Positions 33,770 to 45,803 of a stretch of 64,000 nucleotides of DNA are shown here, piece by piece. The translations under genes were made by a program, and so were the position numbers. Source of the DNA: Blastomonas sp. (GTDB taxonomy: Bacteria > Pseudomonadota > Alphaproteobacteria > Sphingomonadales > Sphingomonadaceae). The notes under the pieces are model-generated. The model saw only the letters and a list, made by a program, of their open reading frames with translations. It was not told where the DNA came from and did not search any database. The DNA lies in the NCBI RefSeq assembly GCF_046294995.1, contig NZ_JBKBOG010000001.1:740582-804581 (forward strand), written 5' to 3'. Each line of letters starts with the position of its first letter. Position 1 is the first letter of the stretch.

Positions 33770-35404
33770 TCATTCGACAATTGCCAGTGGCTGCGCGGGA
33801 TCGGCTAATGCATTAGCATGCGGCCGGTAGGCAGGCGCGACCCGAGCGCCAGCCGCCTGTTCAAATGCATAGCCCGCCTTGATCACGTCATGATCCGCCC
33901 ATTGTTTGCCGATGAATGACAGCCCCACCGGAAGCCCTGACACGGCGCCCATCGGCACGGTAATATGCGGATATCCCGCTACGGCAGCCATTTGGCTCTG
34001 ACTGGGCGGGCCAAAATTGTCGCCGTTGACAAGATCGGACAACCAGGCCGGGCCGTTGCTGGGACCGATCAGAAACCTCACATCGTGCTGCTTCATCAAG
34101 CGATCGATGCCCTTTTCCCCGGCCAGTTTTCGCGACTTGGCAAGCGCCTCGATATACTCAGGATCATCAAGACCCTTTTGGCTTTCGGCGATCTCGAACT
34201 GATCCTGGTCGAACCATGCCAGCTCGGTGGCGGCCTGGGACTTGTTGAAGGCAATCAGGTCGGCCAGTGTTCGGCTGGACACCCCTGCAGGGGTTGTCGC
34301 CAGATAACCGTTCATGTCCGCCTTGAGCTCGGTCATCAGCACCTTGCGCTCGGCCTCGCGCAATTCCTCCAAGCCGGTTCGGCTGTCTGCGATCTCGACC
34401 AGCACTGCTCCGAGAGCCGACAAATGGCCTAACGCGTTTGCAAACGCGGCCTTGACGCCTGCGTTGCCACCCGTGCGATCGGCCAGCACCCCGATCCTTA
34501 CGCCACGCAGATAATCGCGCGACAGATTCTTGGCATAATCGGTGCGCCGGGAATCGGCCTGCTGAGTTGCCGGATCCGCAGGGTCGCTGCCGGCCAGCAC
34601 TGTTAGCGTGATCGCCGCATCCATAACGCTGCGCGCCATCGGTCCTGCGGTATCCTGACTGTGGCTGATGGGGATGATATGCGTGCGCGAAACCAAGCCG
34701 ACGGTGGGCTTGAATCCTACTAGGCCGTTCATCGATGCGGGGCAGGTGATCGATCCATCGGTCTCGGTACCGATGGTGATCGCAGCCAAGCTTGCAGCAG
34801 CCGCCGCACCACTTCCCGATGAGGATCCGCACGCGTTGCGATCCAAGGCGTAAGGGTTCTTCACCAGGCCCCCGACGCTCGACCATCCGCTGGTCGAGCT
34901 GGTTGACCTAATGTTGGCCCATTGGGAGAGGTTGGTCTTGCCCAGAATGATGGCACCTGCAGCCTTGAGCCGCGCGACCAAAGGTGCGTCGCGGTCGGTG
35001 ATGTTGGCCGATAGCGCATTAGAACCAGCGGTGGTTGGCACAGGCCCTGCTGCCTCGATGTTATCCTTGATCAGCACGGGAATACCGTGGAGAGGACCGC
35101 GAAGTTTGCCCGCCTTGCGCTCTGCGTCCCTCAGACGCGCTTCGCTCATCGCATCGGGCATGACGGCGATGACGCTATTAAGACTTGGCCCTTGGCGATC
35201 GATCTTGCGAATCCGATCCATATATTCGCGCACGAGATCAACACTGCCGACGCTGCCCGAATCCATCATTCGGCCTAGGTCAGAGATCGATTGTTCCTCG
35301 ACCGAAACCGCACGCGCGGCCGGTTCTGGCGTCTGGCTAACTGCCGGAGCAGCGCAAGCCGTTAAAAGCGTCAAAACAGCTAAGCGCGAGGAGGATTTTT
35401 GCAT
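33770..35404 (-). CDS. Amidase (amidase-signature family), secreted
   Basis: Signal peptide, then GPLHGIPVLIKDNI and the Gly/Ser-rich AS block ACGSSSGSGAAAAASLAAITIGTETDGSITCPAS. Confidence 0.9.
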   Translation of the reverse strand: MQKSSSRLAVLTLLTACAAPAVSQTPEPAARAVSVEEQSISDLGRMMDSGSVGSVDLVREYMDRIRKIDRQGPSLNSVIAVMPDAMSEARLRDAERKAGKLRGPLHGIPVLIKDNIEAAGPVPTTAGSNALSANITDRDAPLVARLKAAGAIILGKTNLSQWANIRSTSSTSGWSSVGGLVKNPYALDRNACGSSSGSGAAAAASLAAITIGTETDGSITCPASMNGLVGFKPTVGLVSRTHIIPISHSQDTAGPMARSVMDAAITLTVLAGSDPADPATQQADSRRTDYAKNLSRDYLRGVRIGVLADRTGGNAGVKAAFANALGHLSALGAVLVEIADSRTGLEELREAERKVLMTELKADMNGYLATTPAGVSSRTLADLIAFNKSQAATELAWFDQDQFEIAESQKGLDDPEYIEALAKSRKLAGEKGIDRLMKQHDVRFLIGPSNGPAWLSDLVNGDNFGPPSQSQMAAVAGYPHITVPMGAVSGLPVGLSFIGKQWADHDVIKAGYAFEQAAGARVAPAYRPHANALADPAQPLAIVE

Positions 35405-35989: not shown

Positions 35990-37001
35990 CTAAATCTTGT
36001 ATAGATTCCGACCATCAATTTTAACACAGTAAGCTTTAATATCGGGCTCGCCCGCAACCAACTTAATTCCACTTGTATAATTTAATGCATAGCGACGTGG
36101 CTGGGTATAAAAAGCGTGAACGGGCTCCTTAGCAGCTTGTTCTGCTGCCAGAGCGAAAAGACACATTGCAAGAGATAAAGTTTTCGGACCGAATGGAGCA
36201 AGCGCGCAGGTCCGCTCAGCGTTCTTTGTGATGTTACAGAGAGCGTCAAAAGCATTTGAAACATCATACATGTCGACTTGCCAGCGATTTTCGGTGCTCG
36301 GATTACGGCTTTCCATCTCAGCTTCAAGGCTGCGAAGGAAATCCCAATTTCGAAAAAAGTTTGGGGGCCCGGGGGGGGAACGGAAACAGGTACCGGACTT
36401 TCCCGATATCGGCTTCAAAGATGTCCCTTAATCCCAAGGGAGCAAACCCGACCCCGACAACCAGCTCATCGTAGCTATCAGCGCCTCGCGGGCTATCGAA
36501 TGTCGGCAAAGGACCAAGCGCGGCTGGATCTGATGAAAGCTGCTCTTCATAGGCCTCGGCTGACGTGTAGGTAAATATAATTGTAGAAACGTCTTCATAC
36601 TGCAACATAAAACGGGTGATAGGGAAAAACCACCGCTTAGGCATCGATGTGATATCAATTATGACCCGGTGCCCAGCCTGCTGCAGGAAGCTATCAAGCT
36701 CCTCTTTTATCGTATCAATATCCTGGAGAAGATCGACCGTACAAATATCTGAAGATAGGAGCCCTTCCTTTTCAAGCCGCCCCTGAATCTCAACGAATCG
36801 TTCATCGAATGCAGAAGCAGGAGACATATGCGGATCAAGAATCTTAAAAAACTTCTTGGCGTTTAAGCCCGTATTGAGGGCGTTTAGTGCTGCAACACAG
36901 CGATCCTCAGTGCCCAAAACACCCAGTAGACTCCAAGGATCACCTGGAAGTTGGGAAATAACCCACTGAAGCGGCCCCCAAGGTCGATATGTATTAGGCA
37001 T
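35990..37001 (-). pseudogene. Unknown alpha/beta (Rossmann-like) protein, fourth gene of the MTase operon, split by a frameshift at a C8 tract (ORFs 36324-37001 and 35990-36418)
   Basis: The two minus-strand ORFs overlap around cccccccc (minus strand). Removing one C fuses ..GKVRYLFPFPP to GPPNFFRNWDFLRSLE.., giving about 336 aa. The ATG at 37001 overlaps the upstream stop by 8 nt (ATGCCTAA). Confidence 0.6.
36363..36378. repeat. Homopolymer cluster G5-C3-G8 (plus strand) at the frameshift site
   Basis: gggggcccgggggggg read directly. It is a GC-only 16-mer inside ~45% GC DNA. Confidence 0.9.
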
Positions 37002-38982
37002 CAGGATTTGCCATCATGTCTAGCAATGGCATATCAGATAAAACCTTTCCGCTTCGACGAGCTTTAGGTGGTTCAAGGCGTTCAATTATTCCGGCTTCTG
37101 CGAGCCAATCTTTTAACTTATCAACGGAAAGATACATTGGTTCTTTTGTCCGCTGATACGGAATCCGGTACATCGGGCAATATAAAGGATGTAAATAGAA
37201 CTTATAACGCCGTTTCCGGTCTTTGTTCCGTGTTGCATGCTCCACCATGACAAGGTTGCCATAGTCCACCGCTTCAATCAAAAAATTAAAAATCTCAGGG
37301 TTTGATCTGAGTTCTTCAATGCTCAGCGATATACCATTATGGCCAGGATTACTCATTTTTAGGTCGCCGTACAAAGCCGTGCTAAACTTCTCGCCTAGCG
37401 TTTGGATAAGCTTGTACCTGTCATCACTCCTCCCGTAATCCGAGGGTATACGCTCGAGCCAAGTACGAGCAGCCTGAAACACCCCAATGGTCTGAATGCC
37501 CGCATTGATTGGCAATTCAGGCTGGCGATCGCTTCGCGACGACGCCTGGGTTGCATATTCCCAAATATACTGACAGAGACTAAGAAAAAGTAAGATGTTG
37601 CCGCCGCTCAATCCTAGTAAATTTTCTTCACCGCTGTAAATTGCTCGTTGCTTTTTTGTACCACCAATTTGAAGCAGGCAAAGTTCTACGCGCTCTTTGC
37701 GCCAATATTGCTTTGATTTTTTTTGCCATGGCAGGTCAGTAGATTCTGCTTCCCAGCCCTTCTGGCGGTACCAAACTTCACCCAGCTTCGCCGAGAGGGG
37801 GTCGGTCGCCGCCAGTTCGCGCAATTGCTGCGTGATCTCTGCGGGCCAATCTGGATCAATGCGAATTGCTTCTGAAGGTGTGTCTCCTGCGAGCTGAATG
37901 GCTTCGTCCTTCGGGGCAGGAGATCGTCCCAGAGCATCTGCAATCCTAACTGCTTTGGCACGTGCGCTGCCTGGGCTTGCGGAATGGCGCAGACGCCTGA
38001 GAAACACGTCGTTGGCAAATTCAGGGAACACGCTGGTTCCTCGCATCTCCTGCGTTCGTAAGCGCGAGTCTAGCTCCACTAATTTATAATCGCGGTCTTG
38101 TTCGAGGTGGCCATTTGAACCAAACACTTTGAGATGATTTCGCCAGGCATATCCCCGTGTTCCGATTCTATAAGAGAGCGTCGGATCACGACTGATAATC
38201 TTGTTTATAACACTTCTATAATCAGCTTCGGCCCCATTACTTCTGATGTTGGCTAGCTCTTCGTACTGATCGATCAAAACATAAAATTCAATGTCTTTTG
38301 GAACGACGCCGCTTCTTTTTAATTCGGTAACTATCACCTTCATCGGTTCGCCAGCAGATGTTTTGCTCACGGATACGGCAGGGTCTAGCGTAGTGTCATT
38401 TCCATTCATGAAGCGTCGATACAATGCAAGTCGCTTGCGTAATCGGCTTTCAAGGTCATCGATATCTTCTGCGCCCTGCAGGTACCCTTCCCAAACATCG
38501 CTATTGGCGGTGCTATTTACAAAACGGCGCAGTGGGTCTCGGTCAAATTTAAGACCTAGTTGGGCAGTCAGTGAAGAGTTATCGCTCAATATTTTGACTG
38601 ACTTCAAAATGTCTAAGGCTACGACGTAGTTAAAGAAGTCACCGAACATCAATTCTTGTGCACTGTCTCCCTGTTCGGCTCTGCGATTTCCAAACTCATT
38701 ACAGCGAGCTGTATTAATATTTATCCCAGCCCCAATAAACCTAGAGCTTTCTTCTGGGATAGGGAAAGGTTCGCCAATATCGCTGTATGCAACTCGAACT
38801 TCGGGCTGGAGTAATTTGAACAACATACTCTTACCGCTACCCTGCACTCCCGAAAGAATCACATGGCCAGGTTGAAACAATGGCATCGCGTGGGGAACCA
38901 GTTTGTGGCTAAAAATTTCTACAAACTCATCAGGATCTACTTTCTCCCCGACGTAAAGCTGCTGGAATGGATTGCGCGTCAT
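36994..38982 (-). CDS. Large P-loop NTPase (AAA/ORC-Cdc6- or STAND-like) with a basic C-terminal region, third gene of the MTase operon
   Basis: Walker A ILSGVQGSGKSMLFKLL. Candidate Walker B FYVLIDQYEEL. The start MTRNPFQQLYVGEK lies 2 nt after the upstream stop. The C-terminal KDRKRRYKFYLHPLYCPMYRIPYQRTKEP looks like a winged-helix strand-turn, which is inference. Confidence 0.75.
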   Translation of the reverse strand: MTRNPFQQLYVGEKVDPDEFVEIFSHKLVPHAMPLFQPGHVILSGVQGSGKSMLFKLLQPEVRVAYSDIGEPFPIPEESSRFIGAGININTARCNEFGNRRAEQGDSAQELMFGDFFNYVVALDILKSVKILSDNSSLTAQLGLKFDRDPLRRFVNSTANSDVWEGYLQGAEDIDDLESRLRKRLALYRRFMNGNDTTLDPAVSVSKTSAGEPMKVIVTELKRSGVVPKDIEFYVLIDQYEELANIRSNGAEADYRSVINKIISRDPTLSYRIGTRGYAWRNHLKVFGSNGHLEQDRDYKLVELDSRLRTQEMRGTSVFPEFANDVFLRRLRHSASPGSARAKAVRIADALGRSPAPKDEAIQLAGDTPSEAIRIDPDWPAEITQQLRELAATDPLSAKLGEVWYRQKGWEAESTDLPWQKKSKQYWRKERVELCLLQIGGTKKQRAIYSGEENLLGLSGGNILLFLSLCQYIWEYATQASSRSDRQPELPINAGIQTIGVFQAARTWLERIPSDYGRSDDRYKLIQTLGEKFSTALYGDLKMSNPGHNGISLSIEELRSNPEIFNFLIEAVDYGNLVMVEHATRNKDRKRRYKFYLHPLYCPMYRIPYQRTKEPMYLSVDKLKDWLAEAGIIERLEPPKARRSGKVLSDMPLLDMMANPDA

Positions 38983-38984
38983 GC

Positions 38985-39935
38985 TCAGCTTCTCCGAATG
39001 CGCGAAAACAGTGGAGACCATTGGGGGCCATGGTGGTGAATGATCGGTAAGGTGTTGTCCGGACAATTCGAATATAGGGCAACTAGTGCACCCGTCGCCT
39101 CATATCCGTAGGGATGCTGTGCCCAGATTCCCATTCGTGTCCCCAATCTTGAAATTAGCTCTCTCACTTTAGGAAAAATATTTGGTTCGTTTGCCTGTGG
39201 GGTTGCCCCTAAGAATAGTTCTCCGTGCAATATCAAGGCAGGTGAAAATGTAACATTTGGGCAATCTGAGGCCAGGGCTTTGCCGGTATTTAGTCCTTCC
39301 GGACAGCATACTAAAGGGAGTACCAAGATCGGGGTATTTGGAAGGCATGTTGCTGCCCAGTGCACTGCTTTAGCCATTTGATTGCCAGTTCCAACAAAAT
39401 CCTCCAGCAAGACAAGTCGTTCTATTTTCTGATTTATGAGATATGACCTGATGGCGAGTGGATCACCAAAGAGAGATAGAGATCGCCAATCTGGTCTATT
39501 GTCATGCCCAGAAAGTTGGTTAAGTTTAAGAAATGAATTGATACGCATGCTGTCTGTAATTGGACAAAACCACGTACGGTACATAGCTTGATTTACTAGA
39601 CTTGAGAGATTCGGCGCTTGGATGTCGATTTTTGCGTGATCAATAACCCATCGAGTTGCTTGACCGCCGAAGGCAGCTCGACATAACGAATCGAATTGCT
39701 GCTTTCCGATGAAAAATAGGTGTCGTAAAAGTCGAAAGAGTGTCTTTTGATCTTCAGTGCTATCTATATTGTTTAGCCATTCAACTAAACGGTCATCGAA
39801 TGCTTCGTAGCGATTGGGCTCATACTCATTAAAGAGTTCACTTTGAAGCCAAAGCAAATGGTCGCGCAGGGCGATTAAATCGTCGCTATCTGCGTCAAAC
39901 AACCATGGATTCACAATATTGAACAAGGCGCTCAT
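38985..39935 (-). CDS. Phosphoribosyltransferase-like protein, second gene of the MTase operon
   Basis: ERLVLLEDFVGTGNQ fits the PRPP-binding loop pattern of type I PRTases (four hydrophobic residues, two acidic residues, xxTG). It is preceded by an unassigned, helix-rich N-terminal region of about 190 aa. The ATG is 1 nt after the MTase stop. Confidence 0.6.
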   Translation of the reverse strand: MSALFNIVNPWLFDADSDDLIALRDHLLWLQSELFNEYEPNRYEAFDDRLVEWLNNIDSTEDQKTLFRLLRHLFFIGKQQFDSLCRAAFGGQATRWVIDHAKIDIQAPNLSSLVNQAMYRTWFCPITDSMRINSFLKLNQLSGHDNRPDWRSLSLFGDPLAIRSYLINQKIERLVLLEDFVGTGNQMAKAVHWAATCLPNTPILVLPLVCCPEGLNTGKALASDCPNVTFSPALILHGELFLGATPQANEPNIFPKVRELISRLGTRMGIWAQHPYGYEATGALVALYSNCPDNTLPIIHHHGPQWSPLFSRIRRS

Positions 39936-39936
39936 A

Positions 39937-41331
39937 TTAGGCTTTCAAAATCGCTTCTCGCACAAAGTTTGCAAGAATGGCAGCCATTGGAGGAGGGACG
40001 GCATTCCCAATTTGCGTGAATGTATCGGATTTCGATCCGGCAAAGCGAAATGAATCCGGGAATCCCTGTATCCGCGCAGCTTCCCTTGGTGTCATGCCCC
40101 GATTGTCAGATGGGTGGAGAAAAAGGTCTGGTCGGCCAAATCGTGTATCCACTGTAGGTGAGGGCGCATCCCACTCTAGTCGGCGATAACGACCGTTATA
40201 TGTTTGTCGTAGCTCCAGAAAGTCACCTGAGATCCGGATGTACCCCGCACTTTCGAGGAGGGGCAACTCTTGAATTATGGCGTTGCCAAATTCGGAAACT
40301 AGCCGATTGATGTGGACAGGATCCCCATCTCCATGTCGCCGCACGCGCTCCCTGCGACGGAGCCTTGTTATTGAAACTAGGATGAGCTTTTGAAGTTCGG
40401 TTGTTGCGCCGTAAACCTCGGGAATGTCCCATGTTGCGATCGTGCGCTCGCTGATCCTTACATTGCTGACGCGCTGGCCAGCGCCAATTTGCTGGGCAAT
40501 AAGCCAGTCGCGCGTCCCTTCCCGAGGCCATTCTATATCTTCGTCTTGGGTAAGGTCAGTGAGCGCTTCGCGGACTGACAACGATTGCTGCCGGGGGATT
40601 TCGATGCGAATAGAATCGCTACCGAGCCAGCTAAGGAGAAAAAGCCTTTTTCGACGCTGTCCTAACCCACAGGCCTGCCCGTCGAGCAGCAGCCGGCGCA
40701 CATTGTAGCCAGCTGAACGGAGGCGGTCCTCCAGGCCTTCCCATAGGCGCAGGTGAGCGCCCGAGAGCGCAGCTGGGACGTTCTCAACAATGACCACACG
40801 AGGTCTCGACGCCACCGCTATATCTGCCACTCGCATCAGTAATGCGTTTCGTGGATCGGCAACGTTACGTTTTCCCGAGGTGGAAAAGCCTTGGCATGGC
40901 GCACCAGCGAGAAGGATTGTCGGCATACTGTTATGGGGCTTTAAGCGACTAAGATCGGTCCGAAATGCCCGGCCCGGCAGGTTTTGCACGTACGTGGCGA
41001 GCGACTTTCGATCAATGTCGTACGCTGAGACAGGAAATATCCCTTGCTGCAGAAATCCTAGGTCGAGACCGCCGCATCCTGAAAAAAGACTCGTGGCATG
41101 CCAGCCACAAGCCTGTCCTGTAGGCAACTCAAGCTTGGCGTAAGCGGGAGCTTGCCCTATTGCGTCGTTGTCCGGTCGCTCCGCGAGCGGCAGGCGTGCT
41201 GCATCAGATCGAGCCAGGCTGGCGTCAATCGCTTGTCTTGTTTCGAATCTAGTGGGCTCGATTTTTTCCTGAACCAAGGTAGAATGTCTTGTGATGTTTT
41301 CTCGCCCCAATTGCCCGGCTCTGGATGCCAT
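39937..41331 (-). CDS. dcm: DNA (cytosine-5)-methyltransferase
   Basis: Motif I LFSGCGGLDLGF, motif IV GAPCQGFS, motif VI ENVP, motif VIII QRRKRLFLL, motif X GNAVPPPMA. About 90 aa of N-terminal extension. The ATG at 41331 overlaps the divergent thyX 5' end. Confidence 0.92.
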   Translation of the reverse strand: MASRAGQLGRENITRHSTLVQEKIEPTRFETRQAIDASLARSDAARLPLAERPDNDAIGQAPAYAKLELPTGQACGWHATSLFSGCGGLDLGFLQQGIFPVSAYDIDRKSLATYVQNLPGRAFRTDLSRLKPHNSMPTILLAGAPCQGFSTSGKRNVADPRNALLMRVADIAVASRPRVVIVENVPAALSGAHLRLWEGLEDRLRSAGYNVRRLLLDGQACGLGQRRKRLFLLSWLGSDSIRIEIPRQQSLSVREALTDLTQDEDIEWPREGTRDWLIAQQIGAGQRVSNVRISERTIATWDIPEVYGATTELQKLILVSITRLRRRERVRRHGDGDPVHINRLVSEFGNAIIQELPLLESAGYIRISGDFLELRQTYNGRYRRLEWDAPSPTVDTRFGRPDLFLHPSDNRGMTPREAARIQGFPDSFRFAGSKSDTFTQIGNAVPPPMAAILANFVREAILKA

Positions 41332-42172
41332 CCTAGGGCAAGAATTCCCTATTTTGAACCACGGATTTATCCGGGTTGTGGACTACATGGGTGGAGATGA
41401 CGCTGTCGTCCAGGCAGCTCGTGTTTCGTACGGTGCAGGCACGAAAACGGTCAGAGACGATAGGGCGTTGATCAGGTACCTTTTGAGCCACAGTCATACG
41501 ACTCCATTTGAGATGGCTGAGATTAAACTACACGTTAAAATGCCAATTTTTGTGGCTAGGCAGTGGATTCGGCATCGAACCGCGTCAGTGAATGAGTATT
41601 CAGCTCGCTATTCAATCCTAGACAAAGAGTTCTACTCACCTAGCGCCGAAGCAATTGCGGCTCAAAGCGATTCTAATCGGCAAGGTCGCGGTAAACCTTT
41701 AGAACTACGCGAACAGAATGATGTAAACGAGACAATTACAGCTATTTCCAATGCATCATATGACGCATATGTTGCCTTACTGAACGAGAATGACCAAGGC
41801 GAGCAATTAAATCCTGATCGTCTCGGTTTGGCTCGGGAACTTGCGCGCTCAGTTTTGCCGGTGGGGTTCTATACTCAATGGTACTGGAAAACTGACCTGC
41901 ATAACCTTCTAAGATTTCTCGAGTTGCGCACTGATCCGCATGCTCAGTGGGAAATTCGGCAGTATGCCCTTAAAATTCTCGACATTGTTAAGGTTTGGGC
42001 TCCACTAACTTACGAAGCGTTCATCGATTTTCGATCTGGGCGGACAGAGTTGTCAGCTGCTGCAACCAATGTGGTTCAGCGATGGCTGGCAGGCGAAGCT
42101 GTTTCGCAGGAAGACTCAGGGCTAAGTAAGCGAGAATGGAACGACCTTCAAAATTCATTGAAGCCGAAATAG
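41291..42172 (+). CDS. thyX: FAD-dependent thymidylate synthase
   Basis: ThyX signature RHRTASVNEYSARYS (RHRxxSxxxxSxR) plus HGFIRVVDYMGGD..VQAARVSYG and HTTPFEM. Low GC, like the neighbouring operon. GTG at 41291 or ATG at 41294. Confidence 0.92.
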   Translation: MMFSRPNCPALDAILGQEFPILNHGFIRVVDYMGGDDAVVQAARVSYGAGTKTVRDDRALIRYLLSHSHTTPFEMAEIKLHVKMPIFVARQWIRHRTASVNEYSARYSILDKEFYSPSAEAIAAQSDSNRQGRGKPLELREQNDVNETITAISNASYDAYVALLNENDQGEQLNPDRLGLARELARSVLPVGFYTQWYWKTDLHNLLRFLELRTDPHAQWEIRQYALKILDIVKVWAPLTYEAFIDFRSGRTELSAAATNVVQRWLAGEAVSQEDSGLSKREWNDLQNSLKPK

Positions 42173-42294: not shown

Positions 42295-42468
42295 TCAGTG
42301 GTATTGCTGATTGTGGACTCGCTTCCTTTCGATCAAGTTTCGAAGACTGTCGGTTAACACCAGCGTCGCAGCCCCGATTTTGACGACCTCGACCTCGCCC
42401 CGCGCGATCAGCAAGTACAGGGTGCTACGACTGATGCCGGTATACCGGCACGCATCGGGAACCCGCAT
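42295..42468 (-). CDS. AlpA/excisionase-type helix-turn-helix protein
   Basis: MRVPDACRYTGISRSTLYLLIARGEVEVVKIG fits the small phage/island Xis-AlpA HTH pattern. The upstream Met at 42522 is also possible. Confidence 0.6.
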   Translation of the reverse strand: MRVPDACRYTGISRSTLYLLIARGEVEVVKIGAATLVLTDSLRNLIERKRVHNQQYH

Positions 42469-42869
42469 ACTGATCGGCTCAATAGACAACGGCGACGAAG
42501 GTGGGAGGGGCATTCCAGGCATATCGGCACCAATCGTTCAAGAACCGGGATACAGCATGGACTGTAAGCAGCGGCCATCTGACTGCGGAAATTATCCACT
42601 TTCGGTGCACGACATACCACATGACATTTCTACCCCATCTTACTCGTGTGTGCGATCACGGCCCGGCATCCAGTCAAGCCTTCGCAGGCCTCGCGAACTC
42701 AATTTTGGGCAGCGCTGACCCTACTTCACGACTTTGCTTTGGCCAATCGGTCGGAGGCATTTTGCTCGCCGAAAGGGGTAACATGGGCACTGAGAAGCCT
42801 CAAATTCAACGCTTCCGGTCCCCGTTTCCGTCCGCCATTTTCATGTCCGACGCGAGTGCTATGCGCAGC

Positions 42870-42956
42870 CTCGAAAAGTGGCAGAAAACCGCCACTTTGG
42901 AAATGCGAGGCAGCGCGCGCTGCCGGATAGCACTCTCGAAAAGTGGCAGAAAACCG
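42870..42956 (+). repeat. Two perfect 22-bp direct repeats (ctcgaaaagtggcagaaaaccg), iteron-like
   Basis: Copies at 42870-42891 and 42935-42956. Degenerate TGGCAG(A/C)AAA cores lie at about 43050 and 43127. The GC palindrome ggcagcgcgcgctgcc sits between the copies. Confidence 0.7.
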
Positions 42957-43185: not shown

Positions 43186-44154
43186 TCAACCCGCCGCGAG
43201 AGCCTTCACTTCAAGGTCGGCGATCCGCTCCGAACAGATAGCGTGAACAGCCCGTCCAAGCTCCTCTACGCACCCGCCAAGCCACAGCAGCTCCTCTTCG
43301 GTAATCCGATAGTGCTTCGAGTACCGAGCCTTCACATAGGCCTCTTTCAGCTTTTCAAAGCGGGCCCGATCAATCCGACTGTCACGAGGCCAGGCATCGA
43401 CCAAGCGCATGTCGATCCGCTCGGCCTGGGTGCGCAGGAAGCCGAGATTGTGCACGTGGGGCGAATAGAAGGTGCAGACCAGAAGCACGCAATGGTACAT
43501 GCGTTCTGCAGACTGATGGAGGTCGAAGACAGCCTTCTTCAGCTTGCCTCGGTTCTTTGCGTCATTGAAGCCGTCGAAAAAATCTGAAGCGCTCGGCATC
43601 CACTCGTCAAAATACTCACGCGCCATTGCCAGCGCCTGCTCCGGCGTTTTGGGCTTAGGCGTATGAAGTACCCTCTCATCCGCTTCGTGCAGTGCGATGC
43701 CGTCCTTGGCCACGTCCATAAAAAAGTATCGCCCATGGGCGAGGCCGTCATTCACCTCCTGTAACGTGTGAACGATGAAGTTTACCGGCGTGTGCAGCGT
43801 CCGGTCGATAGCCAGCTCACGGATAAGCCGGTCTTCGAGCTTAAGCCAGTAATCGACGCGCTCGGTGAGGCGCTTGTCGTTGACGATGATCAGTAGATCG
43901 AAATCGGAGCGATAGCCTTTTGCCGTGTGCGGCTCATCGACCCAGCCGCCACGGGCATAGCTGCCATAGAGGATCAACTTCTCGATCCGGCCCTTCTTCT
44001 TCCACTGGTGGGTGGCGAGCGCCAGGGCATCCTCGAACTCCTCGAAGATGATCTGCTTCACGCGATCAAGCTCGCGCTGCTTGTTGGCAGGAAGATGGTC
44101 AAGATCGGTTCGCATGGGCAGGGGCACCCTGTAGGCATGGGTTACGATTGGCAA
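43186..44154 (-). CDS. Nucleotidyltransferase-HEPN fusion protein
   Basis: N-terminal minimal NTase motif LILYGSYARGG..(18)..SDFDLLIIV. C-terminal helical domain with AYVKARYSKHY, resembling the Y(I/V)xxRY signature of classical HEPN domains. Confidence 0.75.
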   Translation of the reverse strand: MPIVTHAYRVPLPMRTDLDHLPANKQRELDRVKQIIFEEFEDALALATHQWKKKGRIEKLILYGSYARGGWVDEPHTAKGYRSDFDLLIIVNDKRLTERVDYWLKLEDRLIRELAIDRTLHTPVNFIVHTLQEVNDGLAHGRYFFMDVAKDGIALHEADERVLHTPKPKTPEQALAMAREYFDEWMPSASDFFDGFNDAKNRGKLKKAVFDLHQSAERMYHCVLLVCTFYSPHVHNLGFLRTQAERIDMRLVDAWPRDSRIDRARFEKLKEAYVKARYSKHYRITEEELLWLGGCVEELGRAVHAICSERIADLEVKALAAG

Positions 44155-44167
44155 GGTCCAAGCCGCA

Positions 44168-44416
44168 TCACCAGCGCCAGAACTGCCACCAGTCTGGCGG
44201 CTTCTCTGTCGGCATCTGCATCAGCACGAACAGGGCATTGGCAAAATGCTGCTCGACCTGTTGGGGGGTTATGCCGTGTTTGTTTGCAAGCTGGCGGTAG
44301 CTCATCTCATCGACGCGGATGGCAAGGAAGATTTCCCGGTCGAGCGGCTCCATCCGCTCGACCGCTCTCTCGAACTTGCACAAGCGCCTGCGCTCTGTGC
44401 GCGACAGGCAAGGCAC
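44168..44416 (-). CDS. Small sigma-70 region-4-like HTH protein
   Basis: LDREIFLAIRVDEMSYRQLANKHGITPQQVEQHFANAL resembles ECF sigma region 4.2. GTG start 1 nt after the integrase stop. Confidence 0.5.
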   Translation of the reverse strand: MPCLSRTERRRLCKFERAVERMEPLDREIFLAIRVDEMSYRQLANKHGITPQQVEQHFANALFVLMQMPTEKPPDWWQFWRW

Positions 44417-44417
44417 C

Positions 44418-45587
44418 TCAACTCTCCTTGTCGCAATATGCGGCCCATTCGGCCATCATGACCCGGCGCTTTTCCAACAGATTGCCACGCCGGTAGGCCG
44501 CTTCGGTTTTGTTGGCGACCGTATGGGCCAGGGCTGCCTCTGCAACATCGCTGGGATGATTGGTCTCCTCGCTGACCCAATCCCGGAACGACGATCGGAA
44601 ACCGTGAGGTGTGAATGGCTGACCCATTTCCTTCATCAGCATCGACAATGTCATGTCTGATAGCGGCTTGTTGCTGCGAATTCCGGGAAACACATACTGG
44701 CAGTCGCGCAATCGCAATTGAGCGCAGCGGCGCAGGATACGCAGCGGACGTGGGGTCAGGGGTACAACATGCTCGCGGAATGCCTTCATACGCTCCTTAG
44801 GAAGCGTCCAGAGGGCTTCCTCCATATCAACCTCATCCCAGGTCATGCCGCGCACCTCGCCCGATCTTGCGGCGGTGTAGATCGCAAATTCCAGTGCAAG
44901 GCGGCTGAAGGATTCCCGCGCGCGCAACTTCAATATGAACTTCGACACTTTCTCGTATGGCATGGCCGGAAAATGCCCGTCCTTGCGTGGCTGGCGCGGC
45001 AGGCCTTTCGAAATTGCTCGCATGGGAGCCTCGGTCTCGCGGTAGCCAGACGCATAGGCCCAGTCGAGGACCGCTCCGATGCGCTGGCGGACCCGCCGCG
45101 CCGTTTCGGGCTTTGCCAGCCAGATTTCAGCGAGAACGTCGCGGATCATTGGGCCGGTGATCTTGTCGACCTTGTGCTTCCCGATGGATGGAAAGACATA
45201 CATTTCGAGCGTGCGCATCCACTGCGCGTGGTGCTTGCCATTGCGCCAGGTCTTCGAGTGAATGTCGAAGACCTTCTGGGCCGCGTCCTTGAAGGTCGGC
45301 ACCGCTTCGAGCTTGCGCCGCTCGAACTGAGGGTCGAGGCCCATTTCCATCTGGCTGCGGACCTCACGTGCCCGCTCGCGAGCCTCAGCAAGGCTTACCT
45401 TGCTACAGCTGCCCAAGCCGAAATCGCGGCGGTGGCCCTGTTTCTGAACCCGGCAAACCCAGCTGCTACTCCCTCCCGGCCTTTCGTAGCGAAAGAGGCC
45501 GTCGCCAAAACTCACCCGGCGGGTGCTCTGGGCCTTGGTCTCCGGATCGGAATTGGTAGTCGTTTTCATAGAGGTGATCATGATCAT
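44418..45587 (-). CDS. int: Tyrosine recombinase, P4-like integrase
   Basis: DUF4102-like N-terminus (GLFRYERPGGSSSWVCRV), catalytic region ..YTAARSGEV.., HGFRSSFRDW, ..LAH.. and AYRRG (R..HxxR..Y). Possible starts at 45587, 45581 or 45569. The rest of the 615-aa ORF reads through the tRNA and is discarded. Confidence 0.9.
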   Translation of the reverse strand: MIMITSMKTTTNSDPETKAQSTRRVSFGDGLFRYERPGGSSSWVCRVQKQGHRRDFGLGSCSKVSLAEARERAREVRSQMEMGLDPQFERRKLEAVPTFKDAAQKVFDIHSKTWRNGKHHAQWMRTLEMYVFPSIGKHKVDKITGPMIRDVLAEIWLAKPETARRVRQRIGAVLDWAYASGYRETEAPMRAISKGLPRQPRKDGHFPAMPYEKVSKFILKLRARESFSRLALEFAIYTAARSGEVRGMTWDEVDMEEALWTLPKERMKAFREHVVPLTPRPLRILRRCAQLRLRDCQYVFPGIRSNKPLSDMTLSMLMKEMGQPFTPHGFRSSFRDWVSEETNHPSDVAEAALAHTVANKTEAAYRRGNLLEKRRVMMAEWAAYCDKES

Positions 45588-45712
45588 CTGTCCCACATTT
45601 GCAAAAATGTCGGCTTGGACGACGTGGGACACACAGGGATCCGAATCACCAGCGCACCCCGCAGGGGAGCTGGACTTTCGGAGTTGATCAGGGATCGTGT
45701 GGGATTCGAATG

Positions 45713-45803
45713 TGGCGGAGCGGGTGGGATTCGAACCCACGATAGGCTTTTGACCTATACACACTTTCCAGGCGTGCGCCTTCGACCACTCGGCCACCGC
45801 TCC
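45713..45803 (-). tRNA. tRNA-Ser (anticodon GGA)
   Basis: The reverse complement is ggagcggtggccgagtggtcgaaggcgcacgcctGGAaagtgtgtataggtcaaaagcctatcgtgggttcgaatcccacccgctccgcca. It has a long variable arm, a 7-bp acceptor stem and an encoded CCA. Confidence 0.95.

Follow-up and report, generated by a model that had tools for sequence, protein, structure and literature searches.

A four-gene cassette of DNA methyltransferase, PRTase-CE, ORC/Cdc6-like ATPase and CARF6 in a Blastomonas tRNA-Ser island: a possible nucleotide-directed defence system

The Blastomonas locus and its island

The window analysed here is a 64,000-nt stretch of a Blastomonas sp. contig (NZ_JBKBOG010000001.1, positions 740,582 to 804,581), in which four close-packed minus-strand genes lie inside a low-GC tRNA-Ser/integrase island (Table 1). 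The methyltransferase (MTase) gene and gene 2 are separated by a 1-nt gap at 39936 and genes 2 and 3 by a 2-nt gap at 38983-38984, and genes 3 and 4 share an 8-nt overlap (ATGCCTAA, 36994-37001); the three junctions of +1, +2 and -8 nt listed in an earlier note on this DNA are thus recovered in the ORF coordinates. The low-GC stretch spans approximately 35.4 to 42.2 kb of the window. That note had given all four genes a GC content of about 45-48%, which is right for genes 2-4 (45-48% against a host background of 63-65%) and wrong for the MTase gene (55%). The neighbouring thyX has a cassette-like GC content of 48%. Its ORF and the 5' end of the MTase ORF overlap head-to-head, and the true MTase start may therefore be downstream of 41331. 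At the island boundary, the integrase comprises Arm-DNA-bind_3, Phage_int_M and Phage_integrase domains, and the tRNA-Ser(gga) gene is called by both ARAGORN and Rfam.

Table 1. Features of the Blastomonas locus, in window coordinates.
Feature	Position	Strand	Description
MTase (gene 1)	39937..41331	-	DNA cytosine-5 methyltransferase; opens the cassette
Gene 2	38985..39935	-	PRTase-CE: N-terminal helical domain and divergent type-I PRTase core
Gene 3	36994..38982	-	ORC/Cdc6-like AAA+ ATPase; ATG start; 662 aa
Gene 4 (CARF6)	35990..37001	-	Two ORFs (36324-37001 and 35990-36418) through a +1 frameshift
C8 homopolymer with extra C	36371..36378	-	Codons of the conserved FPFPPGPP motif of gene 4
thyX	41291..42172	+	Flavin-dependent thymidylate synthase; divergent from MTase; TIGR02170, PF02511
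Island boundary	44418..45803	-	Tyrosine integrase 44418-45650 and tRNA-Ser(gga) 45713-45803

Protein families of the cassette

The first gene encodes, as previously proposed, a C5-MTase with a full set of motifs (FSGCGG, PCQGFS, ENV, QRRKRLF and GNAVPP), matching PF00145 (E 6.7e-52) and TIGR00675 (E 3.2e-43); among proteins of solved structure, M.HaeIII, M.HhaI and the catalytic domain of DNMT1 are nearest to it. The other three genes had been regarded as unassigned, a view that does not survive profile searches, which place them in PF24390, PF24389 and the CARF6 clade.

Gene 2 matches PF24390 (PRTase-CE, E 3.2e-31), and its PADLOC matches are retron PRTases only (PRTase_III-A model, E 1.7e-21; E 3.6e-41 for a variant homologue). 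The suspected PRPP loop (LVLLEDFVGTGNQ) is present, with E178, D179, G182, G184 and Q186 invariant, as are G277, N290, P292 and N294. This loop and the G277-x14-P292-(D/N)-N segment have similar counterparts in the Retron-Eco11 effector, namely VVILTDTIGSGNQ and Gx14PNNxP; the latter signature, typical of type III-A retron PRTases, is for the most part retained. For the AF2 model of gene 2 (pLDDT 90), the best Foldseek matches are uracil PRTases in the PDB (probability ~1, low TM) and a ‘PRTase-CE domain-containing protein’ in BFVD (TMq 0.62). The locus had been set apart from PRTase retrons, correctly insofar as the window holds no reverse transcriptase or ncRNA, and incorrectly as regards gene 2 itself, which is homologous to type III-A retron effectors. 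Judging from this homology, we propose that gene 2 is the PRPP- or nucleotide-directed effector of the cassette.

Gene 3 is matched by PF24389 (ORC-CDC6-like, E 9.1e-54) over residues 16-616, and an identical protein is named ‘ORC-CDC6 family AAA ATPase’ in the sources. Its description as a P-loop NTPase stands, since both Walker A (GVQGSGKS; G45, G48, G50 and K51) and Walker B (LIDQYEE; D238, Q239, E241 and E242) occur in it and do not vary within the family. A sequence search finds no PDB relative of gene 3, for which we propose the role of a DNA-state sensor or switch.

Both halves of gene 4 match the PADLOC model PDLC01923 (CARF6) collinearly (E 2.5e-48 and 2.5e-32). Intact homologues are ~336 aa long, and removal of one C from the C8 run yields a 336-aa protein collinear with them; in relatives the C run at this site is 2-6 nt long. 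The same C8 is found in two Logan assemblies from separate sequencing runs (L018, L019), which makes an assembly error unlikely as the source of the frameshift. With CARF6 split by the extra C, the Blastomonas copy of the cassette is probably defective or silent. That cells tolerate the break with PRTase and ATPase intact suggests that CARF6 is an activator or sensor and not an antitoxin. The AF2 model of the homologue P0243 (pLDDT 90) displays two tandem Rossmann-like domains, with Foldseek matches to tandem USP-like regulatory domains and to the CARF domains of Csm6 and Cam1. Gene 4 also conserves D116-x-T-x-x-x-K122, which we take to be the CARF signature, and no enzymatic effector domain was found in it. 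The Rossmann-like character suggested in the earlier note is therefore borne out, while the protein is no longer an unknown: it is a tandem CARF/USP-like sensor of the CARF6 clade.

A scan of the window reveals no nuclease, helicase, reverse transcriptase, ncRNA, BREX, DISARM or Dnd component, in agreement with the absences listed before, and PADLOC (v2) has no matching model for the ATPase and only component models for genes 2 and 4. As the earlier note had claimed, no named system matches the gene set. To judge by their profile matches, the components of genes 2-4 are members of conflict-system families catalogued already, and because every part of the four-gene cassette belongs to a catalogued family, it is not categorically new. 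Our literature search found no experimental work on any of its members.

Conservation, mobility and methylase exchange

Of the 31 related loci, 21 contain all four genes in the order MTase, PRTase-CE, ATPase, CARF6; nine others are cut by contig ends yet agree with it, and one is without the MTase. The four proteins co-evolve (Mantel r 0.73-0.92, and 0.73-0.79 for the MTase with genes 2-4), with none of 2000 permutations reaching the observed values. Conserved synteny, which had been put forward as a check, is thereby strongly confirmed. The family is rare and taxonomically scattered, its hosts being CPR bacteria, Desulfobacterota and Proteobacteria, and its flanks are unrelated from locus to locus. 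Integrases, relaxases and transposases abound there, as do type I and IIG restriction-modification (R-M) genes, and a PIN/Phd toxin-antitoxin pair also occurs. REase-fold DUF4365 genes adjoin the cassette in four loci (~4/22), as optional partners. The cassette is thus a horizontally mobile four-gene system, and synteny and island context together uphold the idea of one modification-linked, operon-like unit on a mobile island.

Could the cassette merely stabilise its mobile element, with defence a side effect at most? As in post-segregational killing by type II R-M, loss of the element would let methylation decay, and the ATPase and PRTase would then poison the cell. The invariably variable, mobile contexts (integrases, relaxases, ICE cargo), the strict co-inheritance of the MTase with the trio and the rare yet scattered distribution are all in keeping with such addiction, but they suit defence islands too. 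Partial decay, moreover, is evidently tolerated: L006 is without the MTase, and Blastomonas keeps the other genes alongside a broken CARF6. We therefore consider addiction distinctly improbable.

The MTase itself is exchangeable. Instead of the C5 enzyme, variants L034 and L035 carry N6_N4_Mtase and variants L015 and L037 carry N6_Mtase, all of them keeping PRTase-CE, ATPase and CARF6; L014 combines N6_Mtase with ATPase and CARF6, and in L036 N6_N4_Mtase and ATPase alone are visible before the contig end. Since the trio is kept in distant variants with N4/N6 or N6 methylases, the conserved function appears to be DNA methylation itself, whatever the methylase class.

This exchange bears on two further alternatives. 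Ordinary type II R-M, with one of genes 2-4 as an unrecognised restriction enzyme, is suggested by the C5-MTase heading a tight operon and by the notorious diversity of restriction enzymes. Yet the three genes are confidently non-nuclease (PRTase fold, AAA+ ATPase, tandem Rossmann-like domains), no PADLOC or Pfam REase model matches them, and the trio is conserved alongside three different MTase classes, leaving this reading barely credible. The other alternative is a non-immune pathway in which the C5-MTase-family enzyme, the PRTase and thymidylate synthase serve to make a modified pyrimidine or to salvage one, under regulation by the ATPase and CARF6. Substrates of all three enzymes are pyrimidines or ribose phosphate, the PRTase core finds its best structural counterparts among uracil PRTases, and 5 of 21 loci have a thymidylate synthase, either ThyX or the unrelated ThyA, next to the MTase. 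The Thy genes, however, are canonical and missing from most loci, the surroundings consist of mobile elements and R-M genes instead of metabolic operons, and the exchange of the MTase for DNA methylases of the N4/N6 and N6 adenine type is intelligible only with DNA methylation, and not pyrimidine chemistry, as the common function. We regard this pathway as highly doubtful.

The thyX product in Blastomonas matches TIGR02170 (E 6.9e-59) and PF02511 (E 1.7e-56); L016 and L017 have ThyX at the corresponding place, as L040 and L020 have ThyA. We count thyX as an accessory gene that recurs beside the cassette without being part of its core. The thymidylate synthase linkage is not predicted by the methylation-gated model set out below and counts against it.

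Possible mode of action and relation to known systems

What could such a cassette do? It looks like an anti-phage or anti-plasmid system that acts on nucleotide pools and not by DNA cutting. On balance we favour the view, with some reserve, that Blastomonas carries a degenerate copy of a methylation-gated system in which the PRTase is a PRPP- or nucleotide-directed effector. The MTase, assigned to its family by profile and motifs, would mark resident DNA, as the class swaps in the variants suggest. By analogy with BrxC-type ATPases, the ORC/Cdc6-like ATPase may bind DNA, spend ATP and signal the presence of foreign DNA that is unmodified or replicating. Such a signal would switch on PRTase-CE, the homologue of the type III-A retron effector, which would consume PRPP and upset nucleotide supply, resulting in stalled invader replication or abortive infection. 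CARF6 may sense a nucleotide-like ligand through its two Rossmann-like domains and gate or license the response. An NAD-directed effector, as the earlier note had also entertained, is indicated by nothing in the analysis.

Several observations count against the methylation-gated reading. The cassette core holds neither nuclease nor cyclase, no MTase adjoins the cassette in L006, PRTase-CE is not detectable in L014, and Foldseek aligns the models to solved PRTases and CARFs with low TM-scores (0.25-0.4). In Retron-Eco11, PRPP depletion reaches only ~50%, and its link to defence is tentative (PMC12746101).

An unlikely alternative assigns PRTase-CE the role of a signal synthase and not of a killer. 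The ATPase would detect foreign DNA, PRTase-CE would make a nucleotide-like messenger from PRPP and a base, and CARF6 would bind it and pass the signal to a separate effector, such as the DUF4365 nuclease of some loci or a host factor. CARF domains are known to bind nucleotide messengers, CARF6 carries no enzymatic effector domain of its own, and in a cassette devoid of cyclases the PRTase is the sole nucleotide-forming enzyme. The REase-fold genes adjoining four loci also agree with this scheme, as does the PADLOC CARF6 model PDLC01925, named for CARF-kinase-AAA, which a variant ATPase matches weakly (E 1.2e-5). DUF4365 is nevertheless confined to ~4/22 loci, most loci, that of Blastomonas included, offer no candidate downstream effector, and among characterised proteins those nearest to PRTase-CE are effectors and not signal synthases.

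The effector role proposed under the methylation-gated reading has its nearest precedent in type III-A retrons such as Retron-Eco11, whose effector falls in the same divergent PRTase group as gene 2, has a similar PRPP loop and mostly shares Gx14PNNxP. The Retron-Eco11 effector is restrained by partner components, its activation lowers PRPP, and a PRPP-motif mutant loses defence (PMC12746101). Unlike retrons, the cassette has no reverse transcriptase, ncRNA or msDNA, its partners are a DNA methylase, an ORC/Cdc6-like ATPase and a CARF protein, and gene 2 does not carry the wHTH that some retron effectors have as a fusion. BREX likewise pairs a self-marking DNA methylase (PglX) with a large AAA+ ATPase, BrxC, placed in the ORC/Cdc6 clade (PMC12839542), and, together with related methylation-dependent nuclease-free systems, it shares the nuclease-free core and the carriage on mobile islands. 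However, the cassette lacks PglZ, BrxA, BrxB and BrxL, BrxC is twice the size of its ATPase, the MTase of the Blastomonas clade is C5 and not PglX-type N6, and its PRTase and CARF protein are missing from BREX. BREX models match neither genes 2-4 nor any other window protein that was scanned; Type II, DruM and DrmMII are among the MTase model matches listed by PADLOC.

Gene 4, itself a member of a CARF clade, recalls the CARF-based signalling of type III CRISPR and related systems (Csm6, Can1, Cam1, Cad1), and its modelled homologue resembles Csm6 and Cam1 in their CARF domains (Foldseek probability 1.0). In contrast to those systems, the cassette is devoid of cyclases (Cas10, CD-NTase, mCpol or any other), its CARF is fused to no effector domain, an association with CRISPR is absent, and gene 4 places two Rossmann-like domains, also USP-like, in tandem in one chain. 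ShosTA, where the partner is a DprA-like antitoxin, and Ophion both employ a PRTase-fold enzyme as the toxic or antiviral part, comparable to the proposed role of gene 2, but have no methylase, ATPase or CARF. The components in question, ShosT (PMC11961720) and OpnC, act on nucleotide metabolism, the Ophion partners being radical SAM and PHP proteins (bioRxiv 10.1101/2025.09.30.679545). Finally, the standard C5 enzyme with full catalytic motifs on an integrative island recalls the orphan and type II Dcm-like MTases of mobile elements. It differs from the type II enzymes in having no cognate REase, and it is not an orphan, because it is translationally packed and co-inherited with three non-R-M genes across phyla.

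A four-gene cassette in a tRNA-Ser island

A C5 DNA methyltransferase (MTase), a PRTase-CE protein, an ORC-CDC6-like ATPase and a CARF6 protein follow one another as genes 1 to 4 in a ~10-kb island of the window (see the table). The packed junctions read from the sequence in the earlier note are all present, with a gap of 1 nt between the end of the MTase and gene 2, a gap of 2 nt and an overlap of 8 nt (ATGCCTAA). The tRNA-Ser setting likewise stands, with an integrase abutting tRNA-Ser(gga) at one end of the island. The claimed low GC content holds for genes 2-4 (45-48%) and fails for gene 1 (55%), the host background being 63-65%. A repeat of the tRNA 3' end was sought at the far end of the island, but the search yielded only a 19-nt copy next to the tRNA and leaves the left boundary unfixed at base level. 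This copy is imperfect (89%), reproduces the 3' part of the tRNA and sits at a distance of 25 nt, between the integrase gene and the tRNA; it may be an att remnant. Scans of promoters and terminators gave counts not above those in shuffled sequence.

Coordinates of the features discussed; handles beginning with L denote related genomic or metagenomic loci
Feature	Locus	Position	Strand	Remark
Gene 1, C5 MTase ORF	window	39937-41331	minus	464 aa
Gene 2, PRTase-CE ORF	window	38985-39935	minus	316 aa
Gene 3, ORC-CDC6-like ATPase ORF	window	36994-38982	minus	662 aa, counted from the ATG that homologues use
Gene 4, CARF6, split in two ORFs	window	36324-37001 and 35990-36418	minus	225 aa (first ORF)
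C8 run with frame break	window	36371-36378		in gene 4
Tyrosine integrase	window	44418-45650		island end, abuts tRNA-Ser(gga)
tRNA-Ser(gga)	window	45713-45803		island end
Host amidase gene	window	end at 35404		opposite island end
19-nt copy of tRNA-Ser	window	45692-45710		copy of 45717-45735
HTH_17/AlpA-like gene	window	42295-42522		
27-nt direct repeat	window	42865-42891 and 42930-42956		
NTase-HEPN gene	window	43186-44154	minus	322 aa
Sigma-70 region-4 HTH gene	window	44168-44416	minus	82 aa
ThyX	window	41291-42172	plus	divergent from MTase
ThyX	L016	6812-7759		divergent from MTase
ThyX	L017	6790-7680		divergent from MTase
Canonical ThyA	L040	7020-7814		co-directional, overlaps MTase start
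Canonical ThyA	L020	559-1353		co-directional, overlaps MTase start
DUF4365	L002/L038	13034-13993		L038 gene: no match to PADLOC Argonaute-associated REase models
DUF4365	L041	13034-13993		
DUF4365	L022	13139-14065		matches PADLOC Argonaute-associated REase models
DUF4365	L040	5475-6878		matches PADLOC Argonaute-associated REase models
Protein with partial PRTase-CE match	L040	13475-14881	minus	468 aa
ParA/MinD-ATPase fusion	L014	8972-11782		
HhH-GPD glycosylase	L005	8354-9052		

Gene 1 is the cytosine-5 methyltransferase it had been taken for: every catalytic motif is found, it matches PF00145 (E 6.7e-52) and TIGR00675 (3.2e-43), and its nearest solved relatives are M.HaeIII, M.HhaI and the catalytic domain of DNMT1. 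Its true start is uncertain because this ORF and that of thyX overlap head-to-head. Gene 2 falls into Pfam PF24390 "PRTase-CE" (E 3.2e-31; 109.5 bits, the cut-off being 27) and matches the PADLOC models of the type III-A retron PRTase (PRTase_III-A, E 1.7e-21). In its AlphaFold2 model (pLDDT 90) a helical domain at the N-terminus precedes a divergent PRTase core; uracil PRTases are the top PDB matches (probability ~1, but with a low TM of 0.25-0.4), and the top viral structure carries the annotation "PRTase-CE domain-containing protein" (TMq 0.62). The PRPP loop suspected from the sequence (LVLLEDFVGTGNQ) is borne out by residues E178, D179, G182, G184 and Q186, which are invariant across the family. 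Invariant too are G277, N290, P292 and N294 of a second motif, G277-x14-P292-D-N-T-L-P, which has one residue more before the last P than the retron Gx14PNNxP.

The reading of gene 3 as a P-loop NTPase is upheld by Walker A and Walker B residues that are invariant in the family and by a match to Pfam PF24389 "ORC-CDC6-like" over residues 16-616 (183.6 bits, cut-off 27, E 9.1e-54). No PADLOC model matches this ATPase, by sequence it has no solved relative, and the family is rare: of 1.84 billion representative proteins, 248 match it at E<=1e-30 and 930 at E<=1e-3. Searches of the sequences of solved structures with profiles of genes 2, 3 and 4 yielded chance-level matches only.

Gene 4 had been left as an unknown protein; its two halves match PADLOC PDLC01923 collinearly (E 2.5e-48 and 2.5e-32), which places it in the CARF6 clade. 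The model of P0243, a close intact homologue (pLDDT 90), displays two Rossmann-like domains in tandem. Its Foldseek matches include the tandem USP-like regulatory domains of cation-chloride transporters and a tandem universal stress protein, and also the CARF domains of Csm6, Cam1 and Cad1, those of Csm6 and Cam1 at probability 1.0 but with TM ~0.27-0.5. Weak Pfam matches occur among 37 homologues of gene 4 (HFX_2341_N in 7, Csa3_N in 1), and the motif D116-x-T-x-x-x-K122 (DITSMPK), which we take to be the CARF signature, is conserved in the family. Gene 4 thus belongs to the CARF superfamily by its Rossmann-like fold and its conserved putative ligand-site motif, and it carries no effector domain.

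The CARF6 gene lies directly after the ATPase gene but is split by a +1 frameshift, so that no intact product is encoded. The break falls in a run of eight C within the codons of a conserved FPFPPGPP motif, and removal of one C yields a full-length protein of 336 aa, intact homologues having ~336 aa. The same C8 is found in two Logan assemblies made from different sequencing runs, which match the window over ~7.9 kb at 100% and 99.975% identity; this establishes the frameshift as real in this lineage. A family-wide phase-variation tract was considered and rejected, since the C runs of relatives at this site number only 2-6; the C8 looks like a lineage-specific slip. The MTase, PRTase and ATPase of the window retain every family-invariant residue. 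NCBI lists, under Blastomonas sp., proteins identical to those of genes 2 and 3 and of the truncated gene 4. The Blastomonas copy of the cassette is probably defective, and the tolerance of a broken CARF6 beside an intact PRTase and ATPase argues that CARF6 activates rather than neutralises.

Conservation of the cassette and displacement of its methylase

The ATPase profile was run on one genome per species and on metagenome contigs, and exact-protein look-ups supplied further loci, giving a neighbourhood sample of about 38 loci that is not a census. The close set holds 31 non-redundant loci (ATPase identity 32-77%). Complete MTase, PRTase-CE, ATPase and CARF6 genes stand in order on one strand in 21 of them; nine are cut by contig ends and all agree with the same gene order, and in the remaining one (L006) the MTase is not nearby. 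The synteny of genes 2-4, which the earlier note had put forward for checking, is therefore conserved and includes the MTase. The hosts include Saccharibacteria, Paceibacterota, Desulfobacterota, many Alphaproteobacteria, and Beta- and Gammaproteobacteria. Across loci, the pairwise identities of each of the four proteins track those of the others (Mantel r 0.73-0.92, with 0 of 2000 permutations reaching the observed value), which indicates that the MTase was co-inherited with the other three genes and not repeatedly recruited. That these genes form a conserved methylase-linked cassette is, in our judgement, almost certain.

In distant relatives (ATPase identity 22-28%) the ATPase is retained, as a rule along with PRTase-CE and CARF6, but the DNA methylase is of another class: 29 close loci have a C5 enzyme, and 6 distant variants have an N4/N6 or N6 one. 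The order is N6_N4_Mtase, PRTase-CE, ATPase, CARF6 in L034 and L035, and PRTase-CE, ATPase, CARF6, N6_Mtase/Eco57I-type in L015 and L037; L036 has N6_N4_Mtase and then the ATPase before its contig ends. The occupation of the same slot by three unrelated methylase classes speaks strongly for DNA methylation as the conserved function, and this displacement argues against a C5 enzyme acting on free nucleotides. The threefold displacement is in itself a concrete and checkable comparative result. L014 carries an ORC-CDC6-like ATPase with a fused N-terminal ParA/MinD-like P-loop domain, followed by CARF6 and an N6_Mtase; PRTase-CE is not detectable there, and an upstream ORF considered as a hidden copy was rejected (hhalign probability 0.3%). 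One PADLOC CARF6 model takes its name from a CARF-kinase-AAA fusion; its weak match to a variant ATPase (E 1.2e-5) hints at a physical cooperation between CARF6 and the AAA+ ATPase.

Of the 21 loci with at least 1 kb of upstream sequence, 5 have a thymidylate synthase next to the MTase. The chance of a single-copy gene adjoining a given gene is, as a rough estimate, ~1e-3 per locus, and the link therefore looks functional. ThyX and ThyA carry out one and the same reaction without being related in sequence, and the repeated linkage of either one to the cassette is another concrete result open to checking. The thyX gene of the window has an island-like GC content (48%), and a weak ThyX match lies near the distant variant L033. 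A place for the cassette in a pyrimidine or DNA-modification pathway, with which a linked thymidylate synthase might be compatible, is weakened by the methylase displacement and appears highly improbable.

An all-against-all comparison found the flanks to be unrelated between loci and revealed no conserved fifth gene, ThyX/ThyA and DUF4365 recurring in subsets of loci only. In the flanks, integrases, relaxases, transposases and other restriction-modification (R-M) genes predominate, the latter including MvaI/BcnI with Vsr and Dcm, plus ArdC, type I HsdM with HsdR fragments, and Eco57I/MmeI-like enzymes; a PIN/Phd toxin-antitoxin pair is also found. It is this context of mobile islands with adjoining R-M and toxin-antitoxin genes that points to a putative anti-phage or anti-plasmid class, and the cassette probably acts against mobile elements. 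In the same mobile setting it could conceivably serve as an addiction module for its own element, which we consider very unlikely. A phage-borne origin was rejected: the ATPase has no tblastn match in INPHARED phages or PLSDB plasmids and none in IMG/VR, and genes 2-4 have no PHROG family.

Possible mechanism and relation to named systems

What could be the mode of action of such a cassette? The analysis establishes directly the family assignments, synteny, co-evolution, methylase displacement and the mobile, R-M-rich context. In the mechanism we propose, the methylase would mark resident DNA and the ATPase would read DNA state, by analogy with BrxC, the ORC/Cdc6-clade ATPase of BREX for which this role has been proposed (PMC12839542). 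PRTase-CE would be the effector, as its homology with type III-A retron effectors suggests. CARF6, with no effector domain and no cyclase partner, is best read as sensing a nucleotide-like ligand and gating the response. The effector of Retron-Eco11, which has the PRPP motif VVILTDTIGSGNQ and Gx14PNNxP, is required for defence, and its activation by a phage helicase lowers PRPP by about half (PMC12746101). A PRTase-fold toxin disrupts purine metabolism in ShosTA (PMC11961720), and one is active in Ophion too (bioRxiv 10.1101/2025.09.30.679545). Judging from its sequence, the PRTase of the cassette may similarly be an effector working through PRPP or nucleotide pools, a reading that we hold tentatively.

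Another possibility is that the PRTase product is itself a messenger sensed by CARF6, the effector being encoded elsewhere; gene 4 has the fold of a sensor, gene 2 the homology of an effector, and we regard this model as unlikely. Quite unlikely, too, is a cyclase-free CARF pathway in which unmethylated DNA would be read by the ATPase, PRTase-CE would join PRPP and a base into a messenger sensed by the tandem CARF protein, and the thymidylate synthase would supply or buffer pyrimidine. If true, it would represent a new second-messenger class and the first methylation-gated nucleotide-signalling immune system.

Comparison with named systems leaves our preferred reading, of a methylation-guided cassette with a PRTase effector, outside each of those considered. 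The likeness to type III-A retrons lies in a PRTase-like effector with a PRPP loop and the slightly longer Gx14PNNxP-like motif. The cassette differs from them in having no RT domain, as judged from island proteins scanned against Pfam and from the called genes of related loci, and Rfam finds only tRNA within 33-47 kb of the window. The earlier statement that this is not a PRTase retron is thus right as to RT and ncRNA but misses the homology of gene 2 to the effectors of type III-A retrons. Unlike BREX, the cassette has neither PglZ nor PglX; the reported lack of BREX genes agrees with PADLOC, no BREX model of which is listed for the seven window proteins scanned (for the MTase, among the best 25 of 61 matches). 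Unlike a type II R-M system, it shows no nuclease family, either among genes 2-4 or in the rest of the island, as had been claimed, the restriction-endonuclease fold of DUF4365 occurring in some other loci only. A cryptic type II R-M system, to which a C5 methylase might point, is rejected on the confident non-nuclease folds of genes 2-4 and is scarcely tenable. Cyclic-oligonucleotide signalling of the type III CRISPR or CBASS-like kind differs in that no Cas10, CD-NTase or mCpol is present in any cassette examined.

Comparison with PADLOC v2 gave component-level matches only. The assertion that the gene set matches nothing known is accurate insofar as the cassette qualifies as none of the named systems considered. 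It is nevertheless too strong, because the component families are already in Pfam and PADLOC: PRTase-CE and ORC-CDC6-like have dedicated Pfam models with consecutive accessions, and CARF6 is modelled in PADLOC, 12 distinct CARF6 models of which matched proteins in these searches. The three names presumably stem from comparative genomics by the Aravind and Koonin/Makarova groups. The literature searched, outside which the key comparative-genomics papers fall, contained no prior account of CARF6 with PRTase-CE and ORC-CDC6-like and no experimental work on the cassette; an earlier in-silico description of the MTase/PRTase-CE/ORC/CARF6 neighbourhood is likely. We rate the cassette, a combination of methylation-based discrimination, PRTase effector and CARF sensing, as uncharacterised and worth testing, not as categorically new. 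If functional, it would unite, with neither nuclease nor cyclase, three ideas so far studied apart, namely epigenetic self-marking (R-M, BREX), PRTase effectors against nucleotide supply (retrons, ShosTA) and CARF sensing (CRISPR type III). Its four genes would offer a tractable test of what a CARF domain senses beyond cyclic-oligoadenylate signalling, and of how a non-nucleolytic system tells self from invader via methylation.

Optional partners and other genes nearby

DUF4365 genes, encoding a restriction-endonuclease fold, adjoin the cassette in four loci and may represent an optional nuclease partner. One of these loci, L040, also encodes, just downstream of its complete cassette and adjoining an integrase, a protein whose C-terminus matches the PRTase-CE model in its N-terminal (helical) part only. 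In L005, the gene of an HhH-GPD glycosylase begins 12 nt after CARF6. It also matches a PADLOC "type II nicking endonuclease" model (E 1.5e-9), and could either repair T:G mismatches arising from m5C deamination or act as a base-excision effector.

The island of the window additionally holds a gene in which a Pol-beta-type nucleotidyltransferase is fused to a HEPN domain (PF18765 E 1.4e-6, PF05168 E 3.6e-6; SMODS sub-threshold at 17.3 bits against a cut-off of 26.5), preceded by a small sigma-70 region-4 HTH gene. No counterpart appears in the annotations of neighbours of related loci, the flanks of which are unrelated, and the fusion may form a toxin-antitoxin or defence gene of the MNT/HEPN type in its own right. 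Between it and the HTH_17/AlpA-like gene, in an ORF-poor stretch, a 27-nt direct repeat occurs twice, the two copies being 93% identical and 65 nt apart.
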